Source: an uncultured Candidatus Saccharibacteria bacterium (GTDB taxonomy: Bacteria; Patescibacteriota; Minisyncoccia; Phycocordibacterales; DATDWN01). From it: a DNA stretch of 37,599 nt. The translations under genes and the position numbers were made by a program. Position 1 is the first letter of the stretch; every line of letters starts with the position of its first letter. The stretch spans positions 1-37,599 of the forward strand of contig CAYVMP010000006.1 in the NCBI GenBank assembly GCA_964452635.1, given 5' to 3'. Below are positions 1,285-22,051 of the stretch, piece by piece. The notes beneath the pieces are model-generated. The model had not been told where the DNA came from. It was given only the letters and a program-made list of their open reading frames with translations, and made no database searches.

Positions 1285-3105
1285 ATGGAAACATTTTTCC
1301 AGACATTGTTGGGTTATTGGTGGGTTCTAGCCATCGTGTTAGTTCTCGCCTGTTACAAACTTGTTTTCCGACTGTTCGGCGCGGTTATCATTCCGCAGGA
1401 CAGTATCGGCATCGTCAACAAGAAGTTCGTTCTGTTCGGCAAGAATCGCACGCTTCCCGACGGGTGCATCATCGCACTCAACGGCGAGGCTGGTATTCAA
1501 GCCGACACGTTGGCGCCCGGGATTCATTTCGGGTTCTGGCCTTGGCAGTACGAGGTTAGGATCGAAGGATTCACTCAGATTGAGGAGGGGATGATCGGTG
1601 TTGTTGAATCTGCCGATGGCAGATCTCTCAGTGCGGGACGTGTCCTTGCAGAACGAGTAGATTGCGACTCCTTTCAGGATGCTCGCAAGTTCCTCACGGG
1701 TGGTGGTGAACGTGGACCGCAAATCACGGTGATTCCTCCAGGAACTTACCGTGTTAACATAGGTCTGTTCACGGTCGTTCAAGAGGAGGCTCTCGAGATC
1801 GAAGATAACATGGTCGGTGTTGTCACGACGCGTGAAGGCAAAGCTCTTCCGACTGGCGACATTGCGGGCGGGGAAATCCGAGGACATAAAATGTTCCAGG
1901 ATGCTCAAGCTTTCATCGATAACGGTGGATTCAAGGGTCTGCAGGAACAGGTCATGCTGGCTGGTAGATACTTCATCAATCCGCGGTTCGCAACGGTGGA
2001 AACCAAACCAATGACCGAGGTCCCGATTGCCAATGCTGGCGTCGTCATCGCTTTCGTTGGTGATGCTGGCGTCGATGTGACAGGAGAGTCATTCAAACAC
2101 GGCAACTTGGTGAAGAGGGGTCAAAAGGGTGTCTGGGTCGAGCCTCTCGATCCGGGCAAGTACCCAATCAACCCTTACACTCACAAGGTGGAATGCGTGC
2201 CAACGGCAAACGTTGTTCTCAACTGGGCAACAGGTAAAACCGAGTCTCACATGCTCGACAAAAACCTGTCCACCATCACTGTTCGTTCGTCCGACGGCTT
2301 CACGTTCAATCTCGACGTTAGTCAGATCATTCACATTCCACGCACCGATGCTCCCAAAGTCATCGCTCGCTTCGGCAGTGTGGCCAATCTGGTCACTCAG
2401 GTTCTCGAACCGACAATCGGAAACTACTTCCGCAACGCTGCGCAAGGGTCCGATGTTATCGAGTTCTTGAAGCAACGGCAACAACGCCAGAATGATGCCA
2501 AAGAGCAGATCTCTGAGGCACTCGAAGATTACAATGTCGGTGCGGTGGACACCCTCATCGGTGACATTACTCCGCCAGCATCGCTCATGACAACTCTCAC
2601 CAACCGAAAGTTGGCTGAGCAGGAGAAGATTACGTACGATACGCAACGTCTGGCCGAGGATACCCGTAAGGAGCTTCAGCAAGCGAAAGCGCTAGCAGAT
2701 ACGCAGGCGCGAGTGGTAGACGCGGAACGGAGTGTTCAAATCGCCGAGTTCAATGCGAAAGCCACAGTCAAGAAGGCTGAGGGTGACGCACTTTCGAAGA
2801 CAATTAACGCCAAAGCTGATGCTGAGGTTCTCACGACCGTTGGCTCGGCTGAAGGTACGAAGATCACGGCAGTCGGTGAGGCAGAGGCGAAGGTTATCCA
2901 GTTAAAGACCAACGCGGTTGGTCCGGGTAACTATGCGATGATTGAAGTCGGCAGAGCACTGGCTGGCAGCGGCTTCAAGTTAGTGCCGGACGTGATCGCC
3001 GGTGGAGGGACTGACGGTGGAAGTTCTGGGATCATCAACGTACTTATGGCAGGAATACTAAAGGACTCGTTGAACGGTCATCGTCAGGAAGTTCCGAAGC
3101 AATAA
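1285..3105 (+). CDS. Flotillin-like SPFH/band-7 membrane protein (YqiK/FloA type). The gene is GC-rich (~58-60%) with C/G-ending codons, unlike the rest of the window
   Basis: The protein has an N-terminal TM segment, an SPFH domain and a C-terminal Ala/Glu-rich coiled coil (AEGDALSKTINAKADAEV...GEAEAKV). An RBS (AAAGGAGGG) sits 5 nt upstream. Codon usage is dominated by ATC, AAC, TTC, GTC, GGC and GAC. Confidence 0.75.
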   Translation: METFFQTLLGYWWVLAIVLVLACYKLVFRLFGAVIIPQDSIGIVNKKFVLFGKNRTLPDGCIIALNGEAGIQADTLAPGIHFGFWPWQYEVRIEGFTQIEEGMIGVVESADGRSLSAGRVLAERVDCDSFQDARKFLTGGGERGPQITVIPPGTYRVNIGLFTVVQEEALEIEDNMVGVVTTREGKALPTGDIAGGEIRGHKMFQDAQAFIDNGGFKGLQEQVMLAGRYFINPRFATVETKPMTEVPIANAGVVIAFVGDAGVDVTGESFKHGNLVKRGQKGVWVEPLDPGKYPINPYTHKVECVPTANVVLNWATGKTESHMLDKNLSTITVRSSDGFTFNLDVSQIIHIPRTDAPKVIARFGSVANLVTQVLEPTIGNYFRNAAQGSDVIEFLKQRQQRQNDAKEQISEALEDYNVGAVDTLIGDITPPASLMTTLTNRKLAEQEKITYDTQRLAEDTRKELQQAKALADTQARVVDAERSVQIAEFNAKATVKKAEGDALSKTINAKADAEVLTTVGSAEGTKITAVGEAEAKVIQLKTNAVGPGNYAMIEVGRALAGSGFKLVPDVIAGGGTDGGSSGIINVLMAGILKDSLNGHRQEVPKQ

Positions 3106-4035: not shown

Positions 4036-6177
4036 ATGTCTAAAGAATCTGAAAAAAAAGTGAAAAAGGACACGCCCACCAACGCTAAAGCTAAGGTGGA
4101 CACGTACGGAGCGGATGCAATCCAGATTTTGGAGGGTCTTGAACCCGTACGAAAGCGTCCTGGAATGTACATTGGTACGACTGGTCCAGACGGTCTTCAT
4201 CACCTTATTTGGGAAATTTTCGATAACTCACGTGACGAAGCCATGGGTGGTCATGCAAATGACATTGAGGTTACACTTTTGCCCAACAACCGTATCCGTG
4301 TTACGGACAATGGTCGTGGTATTCCAGTAGATATTCATAAACAGACCAAGGTGTCTGCGCTTGAAACCATTATGACAACACTCCACGCAGGAGGAAAGTT
4401 TGGTGGTGAAGACGGTGGCTACAAAGTGTCTGGAGGTCTGCACGGCGTGGGAGCATCGGTAGTTAACGCACTCTCTATTTATTGTAAAGTAACTGTTCAT
4501 AAGGACGGAGGTGTGTACATGCAGGAGTACTCTCAAGGCAAGAAAAAAGCACTTGTAAAGAAGATTGGAAGTACTAAAGAACAGGGAACGATTGTTCTCT
4601 TTGAACCTGATACAGCAATCTTTCAATCAGTTGAGTTTGATTTTGACCGAGTGGTCAACCATTTGCGCCAGCAGGCGTATCTCGTGAAGGGCTTGCGGAT
4701 TACAGTCAACGATGCACGTGAATATGCAGGAAAAATAAAAGAGGACGATACATTTAAAATATCTGAGCTTGGGTTGGAAATCCCATCAATGTCATTCTAT
4801 TTCGAAGGAGGTTTACTCTCTCTCGTCAAATTCTACAATAGTACTCAAAAACCGATTCATAAAAATATTTTCTATATTGAGAAAAATACAAACGAGTATG
4901 AGTCTGTTGAGGTATCCCTTCAGTACGTTGACGATATCTCATGTCGAATACTTCCATTTGCAAACAATATTTATAACCCCGAAGGAGGTACGCATGTAAC
5001 GGGATTTAAAACCGCACTGACACGTATTTTGAATGCGTACGCTCGTAAAAATAATTTGATAAAAGAAAGTGAAGATAACTTCACTGGTGACGATGTTCTC
5101 GAGGGTTTGACCGCAGTAATCTCCGTGAAGCTACGAGAGATTCAGTTCGAAGGTCAGACTAAAGCAAAACTCGGTACTGTCGAGGCACAGAGTTCAGTCA
5201 ACACAGTATTCTCTGAAGGATTCACATACTTCCTCGAGGAGAACCCAGATGATGCTCGATCAATCATTTCTAAAGTAGTTCTCGCACTCAAAGCTCGAAA
5301 GGCTGCAAAGGCTGCAAAGGATTCCGTGCTCCGTAAGGGTGTGCTTGAAGGTATGACACTCCCTGGTAAACTTGCCGACTGTCAGTCAAAGAGTTCTGAG
5401 GATTCTGAGCTCTTCATTGTGGAGGGAGATTCTGCAGGTGGTACTGCAAAGACTGGTCGTGATCGACGCACACAGGCGATACTTCCACTTCGAGGAAAGA
5501 TTCTTAACATTGAACGTGCACGTCTCGACCGAATGCTTGAGTCAGAACAGATCAAAAATCTCGTGCTTGCACTTGGAACTGCTATTGGTGATACGTTTGA
5601 TATTGCAAAACTTCGATATCACAAAGTGATTATTGCTACCGATGCAGACGTGGACGGTGCGCATATTCGAACATTGATTCTCACACTTTTTTATAGATTT
5701 TTCCGACCGCTTATTGATGGGGGATTCATATATATTGCTCAACCACCACTCTATAAAATAAAGAAAGGCAAGGAGGTCCACTACGCATATTCAGATGAGG
5801 AGAAGGCGGGTATTGTCGGAAAAGCTGAAGTCGCTGAGATTGGAGAAATCAGCGAGGAAGACCTTGCCCTGCGTAGCTCAAGTGAAGCGCAGAGCGAAGC
5901 AGGGGAAGATGCTGACACTCCTGCTTCGCCAAAGGCTTCGCAGGATAAAGCTAAAGCTTTGAAGATCTCTATTCAACGATACAAAGGTCTCGGAGAGATG
6001 AATGCTGAGGAACTCTGGGAGACAACGATGGACCCTGCTCGTCGAATACTCAAACAAGTTACTGTTGAGGATGGTGTGTCTGCTGACAAGGTATTCGATA
6101 TTCTCATGGGAAGTGACGTTCCATCTCGAAAGTCGTTCATTCAATCAAACGCAACTAAGGCAAATCTTGATATATAA
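4036..6177 (+). CDS. gyrB: DNA gyrase subunit B, with a ~35-40 aa low-complexity insertion in the C-terminal linker that contains a repeated palindromic element
   Basis: The ATPase (GHKL), transducer and Toprim domains are recognisable, including EGDSAGG, PLRGKILN and IQRYKGLGEMN motifs. The linker between YAYSDEE and IQRYKGLGEM is ~60 aa, versus ~20 aa in typical GyrB. Confidence 0.95.
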   Translation: MSKESEKKVKKDTPTNAKAKVDTYGADAIQILEGLEPVRKRPGMYIGTTGPDGLHHLIWEIFDNSRDEAMGGHANDIEVTLLPNNRIRVTDNGRGIPVDIHKQTKVSALETIMTTLHAGGKFGGEDGGYKVSGGLHGVGASVVNALSIYCKVTVHKDGGVYMQEYSQGKKKALVKKIGSTKEQGTIVLFEPDTAIFQSVEFDFDRVVNHLRQQAYLVKGLRITVNDAREYAGKIKEDDTFKISELGLEIPSMSFYFEGGLLSLVKFYNSTQKPIHKNIFYIEKNTNEYESVEVSLQYVDDISCRILPFANNIYNPEGGTHVTGFKTALTRILNAYARKNNLIKESEDNFTGDDVLEGLTAVISVKLREIQFEGQTKAKLGTVEAQSSVNTVFSEGFTYFLEENPDDARSIISKVVLALKARKAAKAAKDSVLRKGVLEGMTLPGKLADCQSKSSEDSELFIVEGDSAGGTAKTGRDRRTQAILPLRGKILNIERARLDRMLESEQIKNLVLALGTAIGDTFDIAKLRYHKVIIATDADVDGAHIRTLILTLFYRFFRPLIDGGFIYIAQPPLYKIKKGKEVHYAYSDEEKAGIVGKAEVAEIGEISEEDLALRSSSEAQSEAGEDADTPASPKASQDKAKALKISIQRYKGLGEMNAEELWETTMDPARRILKQVTVEDGVSADKVFDILMGSDVPSRKSFIQSNATKANLDI
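5865..5904. repeat. 40-nt palindrome-ended element, tgccctgcgtagctcaagtgaagcgcagagcgaagcaggg, inserted in-frame in gyrB and encoding ALRSSSEAQSEAG. An identical copy sits at 17574-17613 in smc. Further GCGAAGC/GCTTCGC palindromes follow in gyrB up to ~5942
   Basis: The 40 nt are identical at both loci. The ends are inverted repeats (ccctgc / gcaggg), and the 10-bp inverted repeat gcgaagcagg / cctgcttcgc lies at 5893-5926. Confidence 0.8.
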
Positions 6178-11507: not shown

Positions 11508-11517
11508 GGTGGTTGGA

Positions 11518-11710
11518 TTTTAAAAAATAATTTCTTTCTCACCACTTCATTTTGAGAGACCCCGTCTCGGCGTGCTCGCCGATCGGTTGCCTCGAAAATC
11601 TAAGAAAACAATGTCCTCGACCGTGTACCATTCACGGTCTCGTCCTTGTTTTCTAAATTTTATGCGAAGTCTCTCAAAATGAAGTGATTCAACGAAATTA
11701 TTTTTTAAAA
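11518..11710. repeat. Structured intergenic element, copy A (~190 nt). Arms of ~35 bp form an imperfect inverted repeat (11526-11560 versus 11669-11702) enclosing a ~105-nt core with two local hairpins. Related to the copy at 24755-24925 and to a miniature copy at 1115-1170
   Basis: The left arm, aataatttctttctcaccacttcattttgagagac, pairs with the right arm, gtctctcaaaatgaagtgattcaacgaaattatt, with an internal 8x7 loop. The core hairpins are cggcg-tgct-cgccg and ccgtg-taccatt-cacgg. Confidence 0.6.
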
Positions 11711-11761
11711 CTATCATATTGTACCATGTCATCCAAAGTTGTGGTGAGGGGGGTGTTTTAT

Positions 11762-11794
11762 AAAAAAAAGAAACCCGGTGCTAGACAGGTTTCT
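11762..11794 (-). terminator. Intrinsic terminator after the RHH gene on the − strand (gaaacc ... ggtttc + T8)
   Basis: The reverse complement shows a hairpin followed by TTTTTTTT. Confidence 0.6.
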
Positions 11795-11810
11795 GATTAT
11801 TGATGTTGAT

Positions 11811-12056
11811 TTAGACAGGGATATCTTCAAAGATATCTATTTCTTCGTATCGCCCATCTTTTTTGATTGCGAACTCATGTCCTTGCCGATGCAGTTCCCA
11901 GAGCAAAATGAGTATCTGGCACCCATTTCGCACCGATGCTCCTAGACTCGGAGCATCCATTTCTTTTTTGATTGATTCCAAATCGGCAAAAAGTTTAGTC
12001 GGAAAATCAATCGTTAGTCTCTTGTTTGCCTTTTTTGTTTCGAGTTTAATAATCAT
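11811..12056 (-). CDS. Small ribbon-helix-helix (CopG/Arc-like) DNA-binding protein
   Basis: The N-terminal KRLTIDFPTKLFADLESIKKE matches the RHH beta-strand/helix pattern, and its own terminator lies downstream. Confidence 0.5.
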   Translation of the reverse strand: MIIKLETKKANKRLTIDFPTKLFADLESIKKEMDAPSLGASVRNGCQILILLWELHRQGHEFAIKKDGRYEEIDIFEDIPV

Positions 12057-12124
12057 TCTGATGAGTTTTATAACGTATTATTTAATTTTAGTCAAAAAAT
12101 TATTGAGTGTGTTAAAATTAATTC

Positions 12125-13036: not shown

Positions 13037-13110
13037 TTATCCACTTTTTATTTATATTTTCTTTTGTTTTATTTTAAATATGATTGTATACTGGTATTAA
13101 ATACAGTTGT

Positions 13111-14007
13111 ATGGCAAACAGGCACCTTTCAAGATCAATAGTTCTCCAATCCCTATTTGAATGGGATTTCAATCATACGTCTGCCGAAAAGGCAAAGGAA
13201 ATTTTCGTCCGTAATGCAGAGGAGTTTGCTCCTGGGCAGGGCGATTTTTCTTTTATGGAAAATCTATTCACTGGTGTGCTCGATAAACAAAAAGACATCG
13301 ATGTAATTATCGAGAAAGCAGCTCCAGACTGGCCAATTGATAAAATCAGCGTGATGGATAGAAACATTATTCGTATCGGTCTCTTTGAACTCCTTTTTGC
13401 TGATCGTTCTCAGGTACCACCAAAGGTTGCTATTAATGAAGCAATCGAGCTTTCTAAGACATTCGGAGGTGAGACATCCGGCAAATTCGTAAACGGTGTA
13501 CTCGGTGCTGTATATAAAGAACTTGGTGAACCGGGCAAGGAAGAAACATCTCGCGATAAGAAAAACGGCAATCCTGCAAACGTTGTCGCTCCTACGGAGT
13601 ACCTCGGTGGCGCAGTGGTATATGCACGTGACGGTGAGGATGTATATCTCGCACTTGTTCATGATGTATTCGGACGATGGACTCTTTCAAAAGGTCATAT
13701 TGACGGTGAAAAGGATCCAATCGAAGAAATCAAACGCATTATAAAAGATGAGATTTCTTTGGACGTTACTGTGCAGGATAAACTTGGAAGTAATGAATAT
13801 GTCACGTACCATCCAGAAAAAGGCAAAATAAAAAAGAACGTAACATATTATCTCGTTGAATCTCCCTATGTTGATGTGAAGCTTGTAAACTCTGGTGGGC
13901 TTGACGATGCTCGATGGTTCAAGATGGGTGATATACTTGACCTTAATTTTTATAATGATATTCTACCGCTAGTTACTAAGGCGATTAATATACTGTTAAA
14001 GAAATAA
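13111..14007 (+). CDS. nusB: NusB antitermination factor fused to a C-terminal ~150-aa Nudix-fold-like domain with a degenerate Nudix box
   Basis: The N-terminal 140 aa form a typical NusB (SRSIVLQSLFEWDF...DRNIIRIGLFELLF). The C-terminal GEKDPIEEIKRIIKDEISLDV resembles GX5EX7REUXEEXGU, but with RE replaced by DE and EE by LD. Confidence 0.7.
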   Translation: MANRHLSRSIVLQSLFEWDFNHTSAEKAKEIFVRNAEEFAPGQGDFSFMENLFTGVLDKQKDIDVIIEKAAPDWPIDKISVMDRNIIRIGLFELLFADRSQVPPKVAINEAIELSKTFGGETSGKFVNGVLGAVYKELGEPGKEETSRDKKNGNPANVVAPTEYLGGAVVYARDGEDVYLALVHDVFGRWTLSKGHIDGEKDPIEEIKRIIKDEISLDVTVQDKLGSNEYVTYHPEKGKIKKNVTYYLVESPYVDVKLVNSGGLDDARWFKMGDILDLNFYNDILPLVTKAINILLKK

Positions 14008-14037: not shown

Positions 14038-14730
14038 ATGCATGACTTCTCTGAGTTCGAAAAAAATACAGGTTTGGATTTTAAAGACAAGGGGTTGCTC
14101 AAACAAGCCTTTGTTCATCGTTCATATATAAATGAAAATAAGGGTTCAAAACTTGAACACAATGAACGACTTGAATTTCTCGGTGATGCGGTGCTTGAGC
14201 TCGTGATCACAGATTTCCTCTATAGAGAATATCCAGCGAAGCCTGAGGGTGAATTGACGGCATTTCGATCTGCTCTTGTAAATGCGGATACATGTGCAGG
14301 TATCGCAACATCACTTGCTGTTAATGATTTTCTCCTTCTCTCAAAAGGTGAGAGCAAGGATATGGGTCGTGCTCGACAGTACATACTCGCAAACGCACTC
14401 GAAGCTATCATTGGTGCAATCTATTTGGATCGTGGGTATGATAGCGCAAAGGTTTTCATTGAGGCGCATTTCGTACCACGAATTGATTCTATTATTTCTG
14501 CACGAAGTTTTATTGATGCAAAATCACTCTTTCAGGAAAAGGCACAAGAGTTTGAGAGTGTAACTCCATCGTACCGAACAATCAAAGAAGTTGGTCCGGA
14601 TCATGGTAAGCAATTTACTGTCGGTGTCTATATTGGAAAGGAATTAGTGGCAACTGGTGATGGTCTCTCTAAGCAGGATGCGGAACAATCCGCAGCTCGT
14701 AAGGCACTTGAGGTTCGTGGATGGGAATAA
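14038..14730 (+). CDS. rnc: Ribonuclease III
   Basis: The ERLEFLGDAVLELVITDFLY signature is followed by a C-terminal dsRBD. Confidence 0.95.
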   Translation: MHDFSEFEKNTGLDFKDKGLLKQAFVHRSYINENKGSKLEHNERLEFLGDAVLELVITDFLYREYPAKPEGELTAFRSALVNADTCAGIATSLAVNDFLLLSKGESKDMGRARQYILANALEAIIGAIYLDRGYDSAKVFIEAHFVPRIDSIISARSFIDAKSLFQEKAQEFESVTPSYRTIKEVGPDHGKQFTVGVYIGKELVATGDGLSKQDAEQSAARKALEVRGWE

Positions 14731-15543: not shown

Positions 15544-15636
15544 CCAATATGTTTTTGGCATATGCCGCAACGCGTGAAGACGTGAGGTTAAGGAAAAATC
15601 GTAGCAACGATTTATTCCGGTGCCAAAAACATATTG
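15544..15636 (+). promoter_or_regulatory. Perfect 17-bp inverted repeat, ccaatatgtttttggca / tgccaaaaacatattgg, enclosing 58 nt in the smc leader
   Basis: Read directly from the sequence. It ends 34 nt upstream of the smc ATG. Confidence 0.5.
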
Positions 15637-15669
15637 GTGAGAAAAAATTTATTTTACACACTGAAAACT

Positions 15670-17961
15670 ATGTATCTCAAATCAATCGAACTTTCTGGAT
15701 TCAAATCATTCGCAAAGAAAAGCGAGTTGCTTTTCAACTCGTCAATTTCTGCTATCGTTGGACCAAACGGATCGGGAAAGTCGAACATTGCGGAGGCATT
15801 CCGGTTTGTACTCGGTGAACAGTCCATCAAATCACTCCGTGGGAAAAAGGGTGAGGACCTCATATTCAACGGTGCAGGGGATTTGCCACGATCAAACCGT
15901 GCATCAGTGAAAGTCGTGTTCGACAATAGTAGTAAATTTCTACCAGTTGATTTTCAAGAGGTGACTATCGAGCGAGTCGTCCATCGAGACTCAGTCAATG
16001 AATACCTCATAAATGGCTCACAGGTTCGTCTCAAGGATGTGATTGAACTTCTCGCTGCTGCACACATCGGAGCATCTGGACACCATATCATTTCGCAGGG
16101 AGAGGCTGATCGTATTTTAAATGCAAGTGTCAAAGAACGTAAATCAATGATTGAAGATGCTCTCGGTCTCAAGATGTATCAATATAAAAAACAAGAAAGC
16201 GAACGTAAACTCGAAAAGACCCGAGAAAATATTGTACAGGTAGAATCCCTCCGGCGAGAGATTCTTCCGCATATTAAATTTCTCAAGAAACAGGTTGAGA
16301 AAGTCGAGAAGGGAATTGAGCTGAAAGGTGAATTACGAGAACGTGCGATTGAGTATTGTAATCGTGAACAGGAATACATCACACGAACTACAGCCCACTT
16401 ACATGAGACGCGTTTACCACTTGAGTCGACACTTCGTGCGCTCGAAGAAGAGTTGCAGGAAGCTAAATCGATTCTTAATGCCCGCGAACACAAGGATCAA
16501 AAATCCGAAGACCTCATTCAACTTGAAAAAAGTTTACATGCAATTCGAGATGAGAAAGACAACCTCTATCGTGAGTTTGGACGCATCGATGGTGAAATGA
16601 CATCGCTCGTGCGTATGGTAAAAAAACAGGAGGAGGTTGCGCAATCATACGAACATAAAACTGTACCACTTGTATCTGTCGAATCATTGTCACAAAATAT
16701 TGAGTCAAAAGTCCACACAGTACGGGGGTGTGTGACGGATGGCGACATCACTCTTGCTCTACAGACGTGTGACGAGATTGTACGACTTGTTACTGAATTT
16801 GTTGATGACAATAAAGATAAAGTGGATATGTCACTCCTCTCTGATGCTCAAAGAGATATTGAACATTTGAAACAGTCCAAAAATGATATTGAAAGCAGAC
16901 TTCAAGATATAAAGCAAAAGGAAATACGCGTGAGTGAACAGTATACTGTGCTCAAGGAAAACATTGAAAGGGAAAAAGATTCTAATCGTGATGCAGAAAA
17001 GGCAGTATTTCGTATTATGGCAGAACAGCAGGAAGTACGATCAAAACTGCACTCCCTCGAGAGTGATGAGAATCTTTTGAAAGTAGTCTCTGAAGATTTC
17101 AAGCGAGAAATCACAGAACTTGCGGTACTACTTGGGCGTGATGTATTGCAGTTTTCGGCGTATACGTTTGACTATACCGAACCTCGTACTGCTCAGGAAG
17201 AGAGGAGAAGAATGGTTGAGAAAATCAAGATTCGTTTGGAAGAAATGGGTGCGTCGGGTAGTGATGATGTGCTAAAGGAATACACAGAGGCTACTGAGCG
17301 AGACACGTTTCTCACGAAGGAGCTTTCTGATTTGGAGGCCTCAGCCTTGTCACTGACTGGACTCATTGCGGATTTGGATACGAGACTTTCAACAGAGTTT
17401 AAAACAGGAGTAGAGAAAATCAATCGACAATTTAAGGAATACTTTGCTCTCATGTTTGGTGGAGGGGAGGCGTCTCTTTCGGTTATTGTGGAACAAAAAC
17501 GCAGGAAAAGTGATACTGGTGCAGATGATTTGTTTGGGGGTGATTCTCATGATTTGTTAGACGATGGAGGGCATGCCCTGCGTAGCTCAAGTGAAGCGCA
17601 GAGCGAAGCAGGGATTGATATCGAGGTGAGTCTTCCAAAGAAAAAGGTGAAGGGACTCATGATGCTCTCAGGTGGTGAGAGGGCACTGACATCCATCGCA
17701 CTCCTCTTTGCTATTTCTCAGGTTAATCCTCCACCGTTTATTATTCTCGATGAGACTGACGCAGCACTCGATGAAGCCAATTCAAAGAAATATGCGGACA
17801 TGATTGAAAACTTATCAAAATACTCTCAACTCATTGTGATTACACACAATAGAGAGACCATGTCCCGCGCAGGAATCCTCTACGGAGTAACGATGGGTAT
17901 GGGTGGGGGATCGAAGTTGCTGTCCGTTGCCTTTGACGAAGCTGTTTCGGTTGCAAAATAG
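15670..17961 (+). CDS. smc: SMC-family chromosome segregation ATPase, short form (~764 aa). An in-frame insertion before the LSGGE signature carries the same 40-nt element found in gyrB
   Basis: Walker A GPNGSGKSN, a long coiled coil, the LSGGERALTSIALLFAI signature and the Walker B motif ILDETDAALD are all present. The start is chosen at MYLKSIELSGFKSF. Confidence 0.85.
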   Translation: MYLKSIELSGFKSFAKKSELLFNSSISAIVGPNGSGKSNIAEAFRFVLGEQSIKSLRGKKGEDLIFNGAGDLPRSNRASVKVVFDNSSKFLPVDFQEVTIERVVHRDSVNEYLINGSQVRLKDVIELLAAAHIGASGHHIISQGEADRILNASVKERKSMIEDALGLKMYQYKKQESERKLEKTRENIVQVESLRREILPHIKFLKKQVEKVEKGIELKGELRERAIEYCNREQEYITRTTAHLHETRLPLESTLRALEEELQEAKSILNAREHKDQKSEDLIQLEKSLHAIRDEKDNLYREFGRIDGEMTSLVRMVKKQEEVAQSYEHKTVPLVSVESLSQNIESKVHTVRGCVTDGDITLALQTCDEIVRLVTEFVDDNKDKVDMSLLSDAQRDIEHLKQSKNDIESRLQDIKQKEIRVSEQYTVLKENIEREKDSNRDAEKAVFRIMAEQQEVRSKLHSLESDENLLKVVSEDFKREITELAVLLGRDVLQFSAYTFDYTEPRTAQEERRRMVEKIKIRLEEMGASGSDDVLKEYTEATERDTFLTKELSDLEASALSLTGLIADLDTRLSTEFKTGVEKINRQFKEYFALMFGGGEASLSVIVEQKRRKSDTGADDLFGGDSHDLLDDGGHALRSSSEAQSEAGIDIEVSLPKKKVKGLMMLSGGERALTSIALLFAISQVNPPPFIILDETDAALDEANSKKYADMIENLSKYSQLIVITHNRETMSRAGILYGVTMGMGGGSKLLSVAFDEAVSVAK
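17574..17613. repeat. Second copy of the 40-nt palindrome-ended in-frame element (identical to 5865-5904). A perfect 10-bp palindrome, gggcatgccc, is created at its 5' junction
   Basis: Exact 40/40 identity with the gyrB copy, translated in the same frame (ALRSSSEAQSEAG). Confidence 0.8.
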
Positions 17962-18014
17962 CTCCTTGATTATTTTGTAAAAAAGTGTAGAAATATGTGT
18001 GGAGGTAAGCGAAA

Positions 18015-18638
18015 ATGTCCAATAAGTTTCTGGGGGTGCCTAAACCCTTTAAACTCCCACTGTTGGAGGAAAGATTGTGTGAACATAAAATCCCTACATT
18101 ATGGGATGATTCGATGTCTATCGGGTTATATATGGTGTACGCCACTGACGATGATGGACAAGAGAATTTGGAGGAGTTTTGTAAAAAACATCCTTCTAAA
18201 AAATACTTGGTTAGCATGAGTGAATTTGTGCTGACCTGTATTCAAGGAGTTCTGTTTGTGCTTTTTTTGGTAATACCCGCGTCTACAATAGGGAAACCCA
18301 GTATTCCTCAGAATGTCGCTTTGTCCATTATCGAGATGATTATATTAGCTGTGTTCATTTTCTCCCCTAGTTACATAAAGAAGTTGCAGTATACTTTGCG
18401 TGGGAGAGGATGGTCGGAATCTAACCCAGCACTGTTTGCCCATGAGCATCCAATGGATGTTATCAAGCAAATCTGCGGGTGTTCTACAGATGACTGTACT
18501 CACTCACCATTTAATTTCTTGGTGTCGCACCACCCAAGAAATCCTACTCGATTCCTGTCTGTTAAGGGACCAGATACTGGTCCTGCGAGAGTGTACTTCC
18601 TCGCTTCGTGGGAAAAACCATCAGAAAAATCAGAGTAG
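18015..18638 (+). CDS. Small membrane protein, paralog 1 (207 aa), with two predicted TM helices and a Cys/His-rich C-terminal region (ICGC...C.H...HHPRNPTRFLSV...YFLASWEKPSEKSE)
   Basis: RBS GGAGGT; promoter TTGATT-N16-TAGAAA; its own terminator at 18648-18676. Confidence 0.7.
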   Translation: MSNKFLGVPKPFKLPLLEERLCEHKIPTLWDDSMSIGLYMVYATDDDGQENLEEFCKKHPSKKYLVSMSEFVLTCIQGVLFVLFLVIPASTIGKPSIPQNVALSIIEMIILAVFIFSPSYIKKLQYTLRGRGWSESNPALFAHEHPMDVIKQICGCSTDDCTHSPFNFLVSHHPRNPTRFLSVKGPDTGPARVYFLASWEKPSEKSE

Positions 18639-18647
18639 AGTAGATAT

Positions 18648-18676
18648 CCTCCGGTACACGCCGGGGGATTTGTTTT
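18648..18676 (+). terminator. Intrinsic terminator of paralog 1 (cctccgg tacacg ccggggg + ATTTGTTTT)
   Basis: Stem-loop plus T-run; an identical copy lies at 19415-19446. Confidence 0.6.
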
Positions 18677-18766
18677 ATATCAATCCGTAGCGAGAATTTC
18701 ATCAAAAATCTTTCTACCTTGATTATTTTGTAAAAAAGTGTAGAAATATGGGTGGAGGTACGTGAA

Positions 18767-19405
18767 ATGTCAGATAAGTTTACGGGTACGTTTAAGCCCT
18801 TCGAGTACCCAGCGTTGGAGTTGGAACACCGTCTCCATAGTCGTAGCGTAGTGGTATCTGAAGAGCCATCTCAAGTGGTTCTGTATATGGTGTACGGTAA
18901 GGATTATGATGCACTTGCAAACCGAGAGGAGTTTTGTGAAAAACATCCTTTCCAGAAGTATTTTGTTGGAATGAGTGAGTTCGCGTATGCTTCCTTTATC
19001 CTTCTTGTTGGCTTATTGTTTCTGTTTACAACTGTCATAGCCTTTACTGGAGAACGAGGATTCACTACCCAGAACATACTAAAAAGCATTTTTATGATAG
19101 TTGTGATTTATCTCTGTATTTTTTCCCCCAGATACATAGAAAGACTAAACCATTCTTTGGAGGGTAGGGAATGGACGACTTCCCCTCCATCACATTTTAC
19201 CAATGAGAATTCGATGGATAGCATGAAAATAATCTGTGGTTGTCTCGATGCGGTTTCAAAATGTGCTCACCCAGGGTTTATTTTTAAGGTGTGGCACCAC
19301 CCACGCAATCCTACTCGGTTTCTGTCGGTTGAAAGTGTTCGTTCTGAAGGCAGAAGAAGATATTTCCTCGCCTCGTGGGAAAAACCATCAGAAAAATCAG
19401 AGTAG
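18767..19405 (+). CDS. Small membrane protein, paralog 2 (212 aa) of the same family. The start is the ATG after GGAGGT, not the upstream GTG
   Basis: It shares the N-terminal MS.KF.G..KPF, LYMVY, EEFC.KHP, FSP.YI, ICGC and HHPRNPTRFLSV...YFLASWEKPSEKSE motifs with paralog 1. Confidence 0.7.
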   Translation: MSDKFTGTFKPFEYPALELEHRLHSRSVVVSEEPSQVVLYMVYGKDYDALANREEFCEKHPFQKYFVGMSEFAYASFILLVGLLFLFTTVIAFTGERGFTTQNILKSIFMIVVIYLCIFSPRYIERLNHSLEGREWTTSPPSHFTNENSMDSMKIICGCLDAVSKCAHPGFIFKVWHHPRNPTRFLSVESVRSEGRRRYFLASWEKPSEKSE

Positions 19406-19414
19406 AGTAGATAT

Positions 19415-19446
19415 CCTCCGGTACACGCCGGGGGATTTGTTTTTTT
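19415..19446 (+). terminator. Intrinsic terminator of paralog 2, convergent with the rnr 3' end
   Basis: Identical hairpin plus T-run. Confidence 0.6.
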
Positions 19447-21860: not shown

Positions 21861-22051
21861 AGTTTTCAAAATTCGTCGAGTGCACTTACTGTTCTGGCAC
21901 ATTGCGCAGTCAATTAGAAAACAACTGTGGGCGAGTGATGGGAACACGAGATCCGCATCTTGTTTTCTTGATTGGCGAGCGTGAGGAAAATTTCTAGCAA
22001 GAAATTATTCCGGTGACAGAACAGTAAGTGTCGAGACAAATTTTGAAAACT
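21861..22051 (+). promoter_or_regulatory. Long-range inverted repeat in the uvrA 5' leader. The arms agttttcaaaatt...cacttactgttctg (21861-21896) and cagaacagtaagtg...aattttgaaaact (22017-22051) enclose ~120 nt and end 12 nt before the uvrA ATG
   Basis: The 13-bp and 14-bp perfectly complementary segments are separated by a 9-nt mismatch loop in each arm. Confidence 0.5.

Follow-up and report, generated by a model that had tools for sequence, protein, structure and literature searches.

The window, that is, the whole 37.6-kb stretch of DNA that was analysed, contains two intact ORFs on the + strand, gyrB (4036–6177) and smc (15634–17961; probable start ATG at 15670), each of which hosts one exact copy of a 40-nt repeat, TGCCCTGCGTAGCTCAAGTGAAGCGCAGAGCGAAGCAGGG. 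Copy 1 lies in gyrB at 5865–5904 and copy 2 in smc at 17574–17613, both on the + strand. An initial annotation of this DNA had reported that the two sequences are identical and translated in a common frame. Exact matching and translation confirm both statements: the copies agree at 40/40 positions and each is read as ALRSSSEAQSEAG. Dinucleotide shuffling produced a match to the 40-mer in 0/100 shuffles, even allowing 3 mismatches, and with 0 matches expected, coincidence is excluded as the source of the identity. The GC content of the repeat is 62.5%, compared with 42.5% for the window.

The ends of the 40-mer are inverted repeats, as had been noted (CCCTGC/GCAGGG, 6 bp, perfect), and the extended arms CCCTGCGTAGC and GCGAAGCAGGG are complementary at 9/11 positions. 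As single-stranded DNA, the 40-mer folds with a free energy of −10.3 kcal/mol (z −3.2) around a 16-nt loop, which holds a degenerate second right arm, GTGAAGCGCAG. The GNA-rich strand of copy 1 is the sense strand of gyrB. Copy 2, in a codon alignment with L005 and L006, ends in codons that align with a conserved EEG ahead of GIDIEV, and its left boundary falls exactly at the centre of a perfect 12-nt palindrome, AGGGCA/TGCCCT (17568–17579), identified as a self-match. No diverged third copy was found in the 37.6-kb window by blastn-short, by mismatch scans of the two halves, or with the covariance model R1 (see below) run with filters off, and the 20-nt core of the 40-mer had 0 matches in a genome-contig collection and 0 in a metagenome-contig collection. 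A consistent target-site duplication was not found at the two copies: GAAGA at the gyrB copy and AGGG at the smc copy differ in length and sequence. The DNA around both copies is GA-rich, and short flanking repeats of this kind are expected there. Neither a transposase/HUH gene nor a RAYT gene was found among the 22 window ORFs analysed (20 compared with Pfam, gyrB and smc assigned by homology), and the window contains no IS.

A second hairpin, here termed unit B (5919–5945, − strand), lies 15 nt downstream of copy 1. On the − strand it reads TCCTGC GAAGC CTTTG GCGAA GCAGGA, with a 5-nt loop, CTTTG, and its sense strand encodes PASPKASQ. The same element is present at the same gyrB site in L004, L174 and L237. 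Together, copy 1 and unit B form an inverted doublet (5867–5945) with a nested fold of −35.9 kcal/mol as RNA and −18.9 kcal/mol as DNA, in which a perfect 10-bp pairing joins the right arm of copy 1, GCGAAGCAGG (5894–5903), to the left arm of unit B, CCTGCTTCGC (5920–5929). The region 5850–5950 folds as single-stranded DNA with −22.8 kcal/mol (z −3.4). The GCGAAGC/GCTTCGC palindromes annotated 3' of the gyrB copy are accordingly present, as the 10-bp inverted repeat and a second GCTTCGC (5935). Relative to transcription, the 40-mer and unit B have opposite orientations in the window.

Both copies are located in disordered acidic linkers. The GyrB linker, which contains copy 1 and unit B, spans 5806–5958 (+ strand; residues 93–143 of the C-terminal query), and the SMC-head linker, which contains copy 2, spans 17482–17607 (+ strand; residues 88–129 of the C-terminal query). 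AlphaFold2 pLDDT is below 50 at residues 105–140 of the GyrB query and at residues 97–128 of the SMC query, the latter between strands 83–89 and 131–138; structure prediction is thus in accord with the surface-loop location that had been suggested for both. The linker comprises 10 residues in S. aureus GyrB (2xcr) and 9 residues in B. subtilis SMC (5xg3). Hence, the annotated insertion at a position where homologues have only a short linker holds with respect to the solved GyrB and SMC structures, but not within Paceibacteria, where a long low-complexity linker was found in 120/120 GyrB orthologues (54–82 aa) and in 119/119 measured SMC orthologues (50–80 aa; lengths were measured in 119 of 120). 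The surrounding low-complexity stretch, which had been annotated as an extra insertion, is instead this clade-wide linker and does not belong to the element. Because all measured Paceibacteria orthologues have long linkers, the 40-mer is a later addition within an older linker. In gyrB the net gain is 4 codons when compared with the closest orthologue; in smc it is 9 or 10 codons. At both the gyrB and smc sites, a hairpin is missing from most orthologues; nothing corresponding to copy 2 is present in the closest smc orthologues, and the smc linkers of other lineages contain other in-frame palindromes.

The third-codon positions of the two copies are identical in 13/13 cases. Compared with L004 (from sample ERZ27297344), its closest relative in gyrB, the window is identical at only 54–56% of third positions, i.e., about 45% differ. 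Because all 13 third positions match against this background of divergence, the repeat points to a recent copy made at the DNA level. The gyrB of L004 lacks the 40-mer but carries the unit B hairpin. The peptide ALRSSSEAQSEAG was found in 0/240 orthologues, so that a check of orthologues for the same residues likewise identifies the identity as that of a DNA-level repeat. Judged from these codon comparisons, the two copies must have arisen by DNA copying and not by selection on the peptide.

The arms of the 40-mer, CCTGCGTAGC...GCGAAGCAGG, match those of a class of hairpins found in many phyla. The class has an inverted 5–6-bp clamp, CCTGC...GCAGG, around two direct GCG(A/T)AGC heptamers, an arrangement that leaves a 3x3 internal loop, G(A/T)A/GAA, which is conserved and non-Watson-Crick. 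Canonical members are 24–27 nt long and have a 4–5-nt YTYR loop, from which the 40-mer departs with its loop of 16 nt. A genome scan identified at least 119 loci in many phyla; genomes rich in the class include the Caulobacter, Taklimakanibacter and Opitutia records to which L015, L114 and L026 belong. The pattern CCTGCGAAGC N4-8 GCGAAGCAGG occurred at 28 viral-contig loci, vs 0 for a perfectly complementary control. With the same architecture and other clamps, GAA/GAA cores were found 19 times and GTA/GAA cores 5 times, and each Watson-Crick combination at most 4 times. The flanks of cores outside the selection imposed by the scan pattern were paired at 4/5 or more positions in 33/56 cases, and covariation was seen in pairs that had no role in selecting the sequences. 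As RNA, the perfect hairpin is more stable than the class form (−20.8 vs −13.0 kcal/mol). The first viral matches, L001–L003, were rejected as relatives: they have the arms alone in common, and their inner stems are GC-rich and unrelated.

The covariance model R1 was built only from other genomes, with the window left out. Exactly three matches were obtained in the window: unit B at 5919–5945 (35.6 bits, E 2.9e-8), a canonical 27-nt member, and the two copies of the 40-mer at 5868–5903 and 17577–17612 (21.4 bits and E 5.7e-4 each), in which R1 treats 15 nt of the loop as an insertion. The 40-mer therefore matches the hairpin class statistically. Contexts of class members are varied, including protein tails, tRNA flanks and an rRNA gene insertion; next to tRNA genes the orientation is fixed (18/18). 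Inverted doublets also occur in L010, L015, L031, L136, L144 and L153, and doublets and mosaics in other phyla. Members are read in various frames and orientations and give unrelated peptides, e.g., PASLKLRR, PASPEASQ and SSEASAKE. Rfam searches at gathering and permissive thresholds returned no relevant family, only chance miRNA-like matches far below threshold. Literature searches with the arm sequences returned only primers, and those on in-frame or palindromic repeats in CPR returned nothing relevant and no description of the class.

In other Patescibacteria, in-frame members were found in a loop of KsgA, where there is a gap of 5–6 residues relative to B. subtilis KsgA (6ifv), in the N-terminal tail of a DEAD-box helicase, in the C-terminal tail of L25, in the tail of S16 (two members) and in an RluA/L19 gene. 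The gyrB linker has members in six relatives, strong in L004, L174 and L237 and weaker in L184, L163 and L212. The hairpins at this site display a compensatory clamp change, CCTGC/GCAGG to CCGCC/GGCGG. The idea that the gyrB hairpin was inherited vertically within one clade was rejected since its carriers are scattered on a neighbor-joining tree, itself a weak one based on 161 aa only. As judged by these matches, the gyrB linker of several unrelated lineages holds members of the class. In 911 kb of relatives, the five best matches all corresponded to the one gyrB site, and the class was rare elsewhere. This single-site pattern in 911 kb is also compatible with a functional element that is conserved, or with there being just one permissive site. 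A strict scan covering 885 kb returned a single, marginal match, and the idea that the class is common in Paceibacteria was rejected as well.

Comparison with known repeat systems reveals partial resemblances. Rickettsia palindromic elements (RPEs), to which the initial annotation had likened the repeat, are palindromic repeats inserted in-frame in unrelated housekeeping genes of a reduced genome, with a passenger peptide compatible with fold and function; they measure ~100–150 bp (peptide 30–50 aa) and are grouped in ten families, and R. conorii has 44 copies (PMC10969869). The 40-mer is similarly palindromic, forms a hairpin (z −3.2, −3.4) and lies in-frame at permissive sites of unrelated housekeeping ORFs. 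In contrast to RPEs, the unit here is 24–40 nt (8–13 aa), and it is visible in only 2+1 copies, in a host that the names of the orthologues place in Patescibacteria/Paceibacterota; its class also has one consensus across phyla. The 40-mer is not an RPE, from which its size (40 nt vs ~150 bp) and host phylum set it apart.

REPs and REPINs are imperfect palindromes of 20–40 nt with a conserved non-paired feature, arranged as singlets, inverted doublets and mosaics (PMC3116915, PMC3337134). Correspondingly, the present class has a conserved unpaired 3x3 GWA/GAA loop, its perfect version is absent, and the gyrB pair is an inverted doublet. REPs are extragenic, occur in tens to hundreds of copies, are species-specific and are linked to a RAYT (Y1 HUH transposase) gene. 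Unlike REPs, all three members in the window lie in-frame inside ORFs, the window has no RAYT, and the class consensus is near-identical across phyla. Bacterial MITEs are generally ~50–500 bp long, usually have target-site duplications and are IS-derived. Those that fuse in-frame with host ORFs, among them ERIC, Correia/NEMIS and BOX, are short, non-autonomous elements with terminal inverted repeats that are sometimes intragenic and translated (PMC10969869; PMC2229807). The 40-mer shares with them its terminal inverted repeats (9/11 complementary), whereas the larger size, a fixed-length target-site duplication and an IS origin are MITE traits not seen in the 37.6-kb window. Mitochondrial genes of Nematomorpha provide another instance of in-frame inverted repeats in essential genes; these are long and perfect, up to 284 bp (PMC6649704). 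The repeats described here are likewise in-frame in essential genes, but are tiny, imperfect and bacterial and have a conserved mismatch core.

The reading that we consider likeliest, although no more than an even proposition, is that the 40-mer was duplicated recently and belongs to a class of tiny GC-rich hairpin repeats that is REP- or RPE-like and survives only in permissive linkers. Such a class would spread in the manner of REP/REPIN or RPE sequences, as a non-autonomous hairpin copied via single-stranded or hairpin intermediates, whether by an unseen trans-acting enzyme or by microhomology-primed template switching. Entry may be favored by runs of poly-Glu codons rich in GAAG, because these runs resemble the GCGAAGC arms. 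In a genome almost without intergenic DNA, the only insertions expected to outlast selection would be those that keep the frame, contain no stop and lie in floppy linkers, and the encoded 8–13 residues would be passengers. The earlier proposal of a small selfish repeat that spreads into permissive loops is in part upheld, in that there is a hairpin family with in-frame members in disordered linkers and in loops and tails of several housekeeping proteins, but the spreading itself is less apparent, with only two copies, no transposase in the window and rarity in 911 kb of relatives. The members visible in the 37.6 kb are two copies of the 40-mer and one canonical member.

A broader formulation is offered more tentatively, as one that we regard as possible but somewhat doubtful: the class may constitute undescribed hairpin repeats of 24–40 nt, present in many phyla, with two direct GCGNAGC heptamers in a covarying clamp and avoidance of the perfect form. 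These would multiply via hairpin or single-stranded DNA and settle beside tRNA genes and within insertions in rRNA genes; in gene-dense Patescibacteria they would also settle in-frame, time and again and with near site specificity, in disordered poly-Glu linkers of essential proteins (GyrB, SMC, KsgA, S16, L25), adding short new peptide segments to core proteins. If the hairpins do propagate, the colonization of proteins in the style of RPEs would not be peculiar to Rickettsia. It would be what selfish palindromes generally come to in genomes that have no intergenic DNA to spare, and it would lengthen linkers and supply new peptide segments to the essential proteins of candidate-phyla bacteria. 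The class also raises the mechanistic question of what recognizes or generates it, given that one consensus recurs in many phyla, that the non-Watson-Crick core is preserved and that members next to tRNA genes keep a fixed orientation. At a practical level, low-complexity regions are enlarged by in-frame hairpins of this kind, which can lead to errors in the annotation, alignment and phylogeny of markers such as gyrB.

Several observations could instead reflect a one-off ectopic copy, i.e., a single gene-conversion or template-switch event between GA-rich acidic linkers, in either direction and with no family mobility, the 40-mer having arisen on the spot when unit B was duplicated in inverted orientation: (i) The window contains two copies only. 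(ii) In both genes the right end, GAAGCAGGG, is superimposed on an ancestral GAAGAGGG, which amounts to microhomology. (iii) The unit B arms kept in L004 (CCTGCTTCGC...GCTACGCAGG), when reverse-complemented, give exactly the arms of the 40-mer, and the pairing with unit B is perfect over 10 bp. (iv) The 12-nt perfect palindrome centred on the smc junction is what fold-back copying would leave. (v) Palindromes generated locally from tandem repeats are present in other smc linkers (L234). Quasipalindrome template-switch mutagenesis raises the complementarity of arms, and it could in principle create both the 10-bp pairing and the junction palindrome. However, fold-back copying would give perfect complementarity, and the GWA/GAA core that is conserved in the class, here GTA/GAA, is non-complementary. 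Moreover, the same arms form the consensus in unrelated Patescibacteria genes and in other phyla, which makes a local origin unneeded, and gyrB-site hairpins with differing clamps occur in scattered lineages. We regard a single local event as unlikely, though still a serious contender.

A selected nucleic-acid structure would account for other features. The hairpins would then be DNA or RNA cis-elements (e.g., a processing, pausing or protein-binding site) and the residues incidental. The finding of hairpins at one gyrB position across several lineages, with clamps that change in a compensatory way, is consistent with this reading, as are the strong covariation, a non-Watson-Crick core conserved despite the greater stability of the perfect hairpin, and the fixed orientation beside tRNA genes. 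In addition, REP/BIME elements are reported to bind DNA gyrase. Nevertheless, the lack of such a hairpin at either site in most orthologues, and of a counterpart of the smc copy in the closest ones, argues against selection for structure, and so do the heterogeneous contexts (protein tails, tRNA flanks, rRNA gene insertion), the opposite orientations of the two window types relative to transcription and the absence of Rfam matches. On balance, we judge a selected structure to be improbable.

A functional peptide, ALRSSSEAQSEAG serving as a short linear motif (e.g., a phosphorylation or interaction site) of GyrB and SMC under protein-level selection, could be read from the identical residues and frame in accessible disordered regions of two DNA-organizing proteins, but was rejected as very improbable in view of the synonymous identity, the 0/240 count and the unrelated peptides that other class members encode in other frames and orientations. 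Least credible of all, and also rejected, is an assembly or chimera artefact behind the shared 40-mer: the window probably derives from a metagenome-assembled genome and the 20-nt core is unmatched in the contig collections, as are three window proteins by exact look-up of database records, but each copy is flanked on both sides by orthologous sequence of its own gene with the frame kept, a chimeric join would fuse gyrB to smc instead of patching both in-frame, and L004 independently carries the adjacent unit B hairpin.

Finally, the heptamers of the arms correspond to a motif with known physical properties. Mini-hairpins of d(GCGNAGC) are extraordinarily stable, and the motif has been described in replication origins of phages and plasmids and in N4 promoters (PMC13037366). 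It is physico-chemical and does not define a repeat family. Two further GCGAAGC sites in the window, at 14236 and 28388, were rejected as members of the class because the clamp is missing, and they are considered chance occurrences. Each arm of the 40-mer contains one GCGNAGC heptamer, at 5871 (GCGTAGC) and 5894 (GCGAAGC) in copy 1 and at 17580 and 17603 in copy 2.

The 40-nt sequence TGCCCTGCGTAGCTCAAGTGAAGCGCAGAGCGAAGCAGGG occurs exactly twice in the window, both times on the + strand: at 5865-5904 (copy 1), within the gyrB ORF (4036-6177), and at 17574-17613 (copy 2), within the smc ORF (15634-17961). Exact matching and ORF translation bear out the 40/40 identity and the common frame described in the initial annotation, both copies being translated as ALRSSSEAQSEAG. 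The gyrB/smc identity is confined to the 40-mer and ends there; a 52-nt, 90% extension proposed by a repeat finder was rejected as merely GA-rich codons on the left side. No third copy was found in the window, diverged ones included, and 100 dinucleotide-preserving shuffles gave zero matches with three mismatches permitted. The inverted-repeat ends and further gyrB palindromes noticed earlier are indeed present: CCCTGC pairs with GCAGGG at the ends of the 40-mer, and 3' of it in gyrB lie a 10-bp inverted repeat (GCGAAGCAGG/CCTGCTTCGC) and another GCTTCGC. Folded as single-stranded DNA, the 40-mer reaches -10.3 kcal/mol (z -3.2) and the region 5850-5950 reaches -22.8 kcal/mol (z -3.4). The 40-mer has a GC content of 62.5%, compared with 42.5% for the window, and is open in four of six reading frames.

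This identity reflects a hairpin repeat that was recently duplicated as DNA, not a conserved peptide. All 13 third-codon positions are the same in the two copies, whereas third positions in conserved gyrB blocks match between the window and its closest gyrB relative, locus L004, in just 56% and 54% of cases. The copying thus happened long after the divergence from L004, in which the 40-mer is missing. The peptide motifs LRSSS, SSSEAQ and EAQSEAG are present in 0 of 240 orthologues, in keeping with the initial view of a repeat shared as DNA.

The window carries ordinary housekeeping genes (including pheT, thrS, dnaE, rnhB, nusB, rnc, rnr, uvrA, uvrC, mreB, mreC, a PBP and greA), and no transposase or HUH gene was found in it. 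The closest relatives of its GyrB and SMC are metagenomic proteins labelled Candidatus Paceibacterota or Patescibacteria group. Both proteins align to solved structures as two blocks: GyrB residues 93-143 face 10 residues in the S. aureus chain (2xcr), and SMC residues 88-129 face 9 in the B. subtilis chain (5xg3). In AlphaFold2 models, for which orthologue alignments served as input, GyrB 105-140 and SMC 97-128 have pLDDT below 50 and no secondary structure. The 40-mer peptide lies entirely within this stretch in GyrB, as it does in SMC except for its last residues, which enter strand 131-138. Thus, the structure gaps and low pLDDT support the surface-loop location proposed earlier, and in these models both copies reside in disordered linkers.

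The initial annotation also took the surrounding segment as an extra insertion. That holds relative to the solved structures, but a long acidic linker is universal in the clade (54-82 residues across 120 GyrB orthologues, 50-80 across the 119 measurable SMC orthologues), and the 40-mer is a later event within this older linker. In gyrB it stands in place of acidic codons of L004 (82% amino acid identity), for a net increase of 4 codons, and in smc it brings 9 or 10 extra codons compared with loci L005 and L006. Its last nine bases, GAAGCAGGG, overlie ancestral GAAGAGGG(G/C) in both genes. Unrelated GC-rich hairpins occur in the gyrB linkers of three other loci, L215, L156 and L158 (in frame, CCCCGAC...GTCGGGG, CCGACGCT...AGCGTCGG and CCCGCC GAGGA GGCGGG). 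In other Paceibacteria, the smc-linker position is occupied by different long in-frame palindromes (L234 3001-4137, L235 151-1143, L236 3001-4287): L234 has a stem of ~30 bp composed of tandem GGAGCTA units, and L235 an 11-bp stem, GAAGCTCGCAG/CTGCGAGCTTC. These linkers therefore act as general sinks for in-frame palindromes.

The L004 segment orthologous to 5919-5945, CCTGCTTCGC ATAAA GCTACGCAGG, is the exact reverse complement of both 40-mer arms with a 5-nt loop between them. Scanning one genome per species for CCTGCG(A/T)AGC N4-18 GCGAAGCAGG returned at least 119 loci, against about 33 expected by our own estimate under uniform base composition. The matches listed come from Alphaproteobacteria, Verrucomicrobiota, Planctomycetota and Acidobacteriota, plus nine Patescibacteria loci, and their loops are mainly CTTG, TTTA, CTCG or TTCA. 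The arms of this hairpin class are incompletely complementary: GCG(A/T)AGC reads directly in each, leaving a 3x3 G(A/T)A/GAA internal loop. In an unbiased control on viral contigs, with equal clamp, loop range and composition for both forms, the GAA/GAA form occurred at 28 loci and the perfectly complementary form at 0; as RNA, the perfect hairpin would be far more stable (-20.8 versus -13.0 kcal/mol). With other clamps, GAA/GAA was found 19 times, GTA/GAA 5 times and each Watson-Crick triplet pair at most 4 times, and cores found without a flank requirement still carry complementary clamps (CCTGC/GCAGG, CCTCC/GGAGG, CCGCC/GGCGG).

Two pairs that had no role in choosing the sequences covary: the outermost clamp pair (CG 17, UA 17, UG 5, GC 2, AU 1) and the loop-closing pair, formed by the first and last loop bases (columns 12-15 of alignment A3; UA 23, CG 20). 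The observed covariation score was attained by 0 of 500 shuffles. The loop centre between the covarying bases is TT or TC in the A3 alignment, giving the appearance of a CUUG-type tetraloop or of dyad symmetry reaching a 2-nt centre. The heptamer d(GCGNAGC), known as an extraordinarily stable DNA mini-hairpin (PMC13037366), is present in both arms. Rfam has no family that matches the class, and searching the literature by sequence and by topic found no description of it; as far as could be found, this family context of the 40-mer is new.

The 40-mer copies and the neighbouring gyrB hairpin, unit B, are statistical members of this structured, multi-phylum class. A covariance model (R1) trained on 50 hairpins, all from other genomes, was run on the window with filters off and returned exactly three significant sites: unit B (5919-5945, - strand; 35.6 bits, E 2.9e-8), a canonical member, and the hairpins of copy 1 (5868-5903, + strand) and copy 2 (17577-17612, + strand), each at 21.4 bits (E 5.7e-4) with a 15-nt loop insertion. 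Within its 16-nt loop, the 40-mer holds a degenerate second right arm, GTGAAGCGCAG, which suggests that the 40-mer may be a canonical hairpin with one arm partly duplicated. Together, copy 1 and unit B make up an inverted doublet whose adjacent arms pair perfectly over 10 bp. Inverted doublets and larger mosaics were found in other phyla too; in Caulobacter and Rhizobiales, class hairpins are arranged as repeated mosaics as well as inverted doublets.

Canonical class members lie in frame in other housekeeping genes of Patescibacteria. They are found in a loop of the KsgA/RsmA methyltransferase domain (L097, PASPRLRR; a 5-6-residue gap in B. subtilis KsgA, 6ifv), the N-terminal tail of a DEAD-box helicase (L100, PASLKLRR) and the C-terminal tails of ribosomal proteins L25 (L109, PASPEASQ) and S16 (L064, with two members, PASPEATQ and SSEASAKE), as well as in an RluA-type synthase C-terminal tail or L19 extension (L105). 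A 30-nt member at 956-985 of a Saccharibacteria 23S rRNA gene (L058) precedes the sarcin-ricin loop by ~80 nt; searched alone, this stretch gives no alignment to the LSU model, which the 3' part of the gene exceeds in length by about 450 nt. Another member adjoins a tRNA gene (L124). R1 scores at these sites are 32.8-44.9 bits. That class members are read in differing frames and orientations speaks against selection at the peptide level. For 18 of the 129 class hairpins listed (from loci L007-L125, for example L015 4457-4483, L031 5503-5529 and L124 7201-7226), a tRNA 3' end is no more than 10 nt upstream; seven tRNA identities are represented, and the GAA strand runs antisense to the tRNA in 18/18. 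This fixed orientation hints at a mechanism sensitive to strand or to single-stranded DNA.

A strict scan of 885 kb around gyrB (80 Paceibacteria metagenome loci) gave nothing beyond one marginal match. With R1, the best five matches over 911 kb all fall in the gyrB linker (L004 35.8, L174 29.4, L212 21.8, L184 19.2 and L163 17.8 bits), and L237 is an additional carrier there (34.6 bits). The spacing between the end of the hairpin and the QRYKGLGEM codons downstream of it is 28 nt in the window, as in L004 and L174; L184 and L163 have 19 nt and L237 has 16 nt, its 12-nt difference equalling its four missing codons; these differences appear to track the length of a Lys-rich segment. Clamps at this site vary with compensatory changes (CCTGC/GCAGG versus CCGCC/GGCGG). 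In a weak neighbour-joining tree of the flanking conserved blocks (161 aa), only the window and L004 are sisters, and the remaining carriers are placed among hairpin-free relatives. Such scatter implies that the hairpin was either gained repeatedly at a single permissive or preferred site or lost many times.

The 40-mer resembles Rickettsia palindromic elements (RPEs), as first proposed, in being an in-frame palindrome in housekeeping proteins of a reduced genome, but its size and host set it apart from that family. It shares its size, imperfect palindromy and doublets with REP/REPINs, but not their extragenic location or species-specific consensus, and no RAYT was found within the window. We infer that the class may propagate as a non-autonomous hairpin in a REP/REPIN- or RPE-like manner. 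Poly-Glu runs rich in GAA/GAG would favour entry through GAAG microhomology to the GCGAAGC arms, and in gene-dense genomes only stop-free, in-frame copies in floppy linkers would survive. No consistent target duplication was found at the 40-mer copies. The main alternative is that one chance event, a template switch or gene conversion, copied sequence between two GA-rich linkers. It draws on the right-end microhomology in gyrB and smc, on a perfect 12-nt palindrome (17568-17579) centred on the smc junction and on the 40-mer arms being the reverse complement of neighbouring unit B, as kept in L004; we regard it as unlikely, though a serious contender. The position-locked gyrB hairpins and conserved mismatch core would fit a selected cis-acting structure, which we consider improbable. 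A chimeric assembly is ruled out, since both copies are in frame and have sequence orthologous to their own gene on either side.

Other features of the window were also observed. Two tandem paralogous ORFs (18015-18638 and 18752-19405; 207 and 217 aa) have no Pfam match. Their 83-nt 3' ends with downstream hairpins are 98% identical (18594-18676 versus 19361-19443) and their 51-nt upstream regions 94% identical (17964-18014 versus 18717-18767), and the pair looks like a recent, partly homogenised tandem duplication. A 45-nt motif, 76% alike, lies directly upstream of smc (15584-15628) and uvrA (21977-22021), in both cases with a short palindrome inside (CGTAGCAACG/TCTAGCAAGA-like), and may be a shared leader or operator. 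An inverted repeat (15525-15560/15621-15656) lies on either side of the smc start. One ORF (13084-14007) unusually fuses a NusB domain (residues 16-145) to a NUDIX hydrolase domain (177-290), and an SPFH/Band-7 gene (1285-3105) has a GC content markedly above that of the window (0.54 at 2001-3000 versus a mean of 0.42). The divergent dnaE and rnhB are separated by an AT-rich intergenic region of ~600 nt (11508-12124) with several nested inverted repeats (11519-11560/11669-11710 and 11493-11510/11723-11740).
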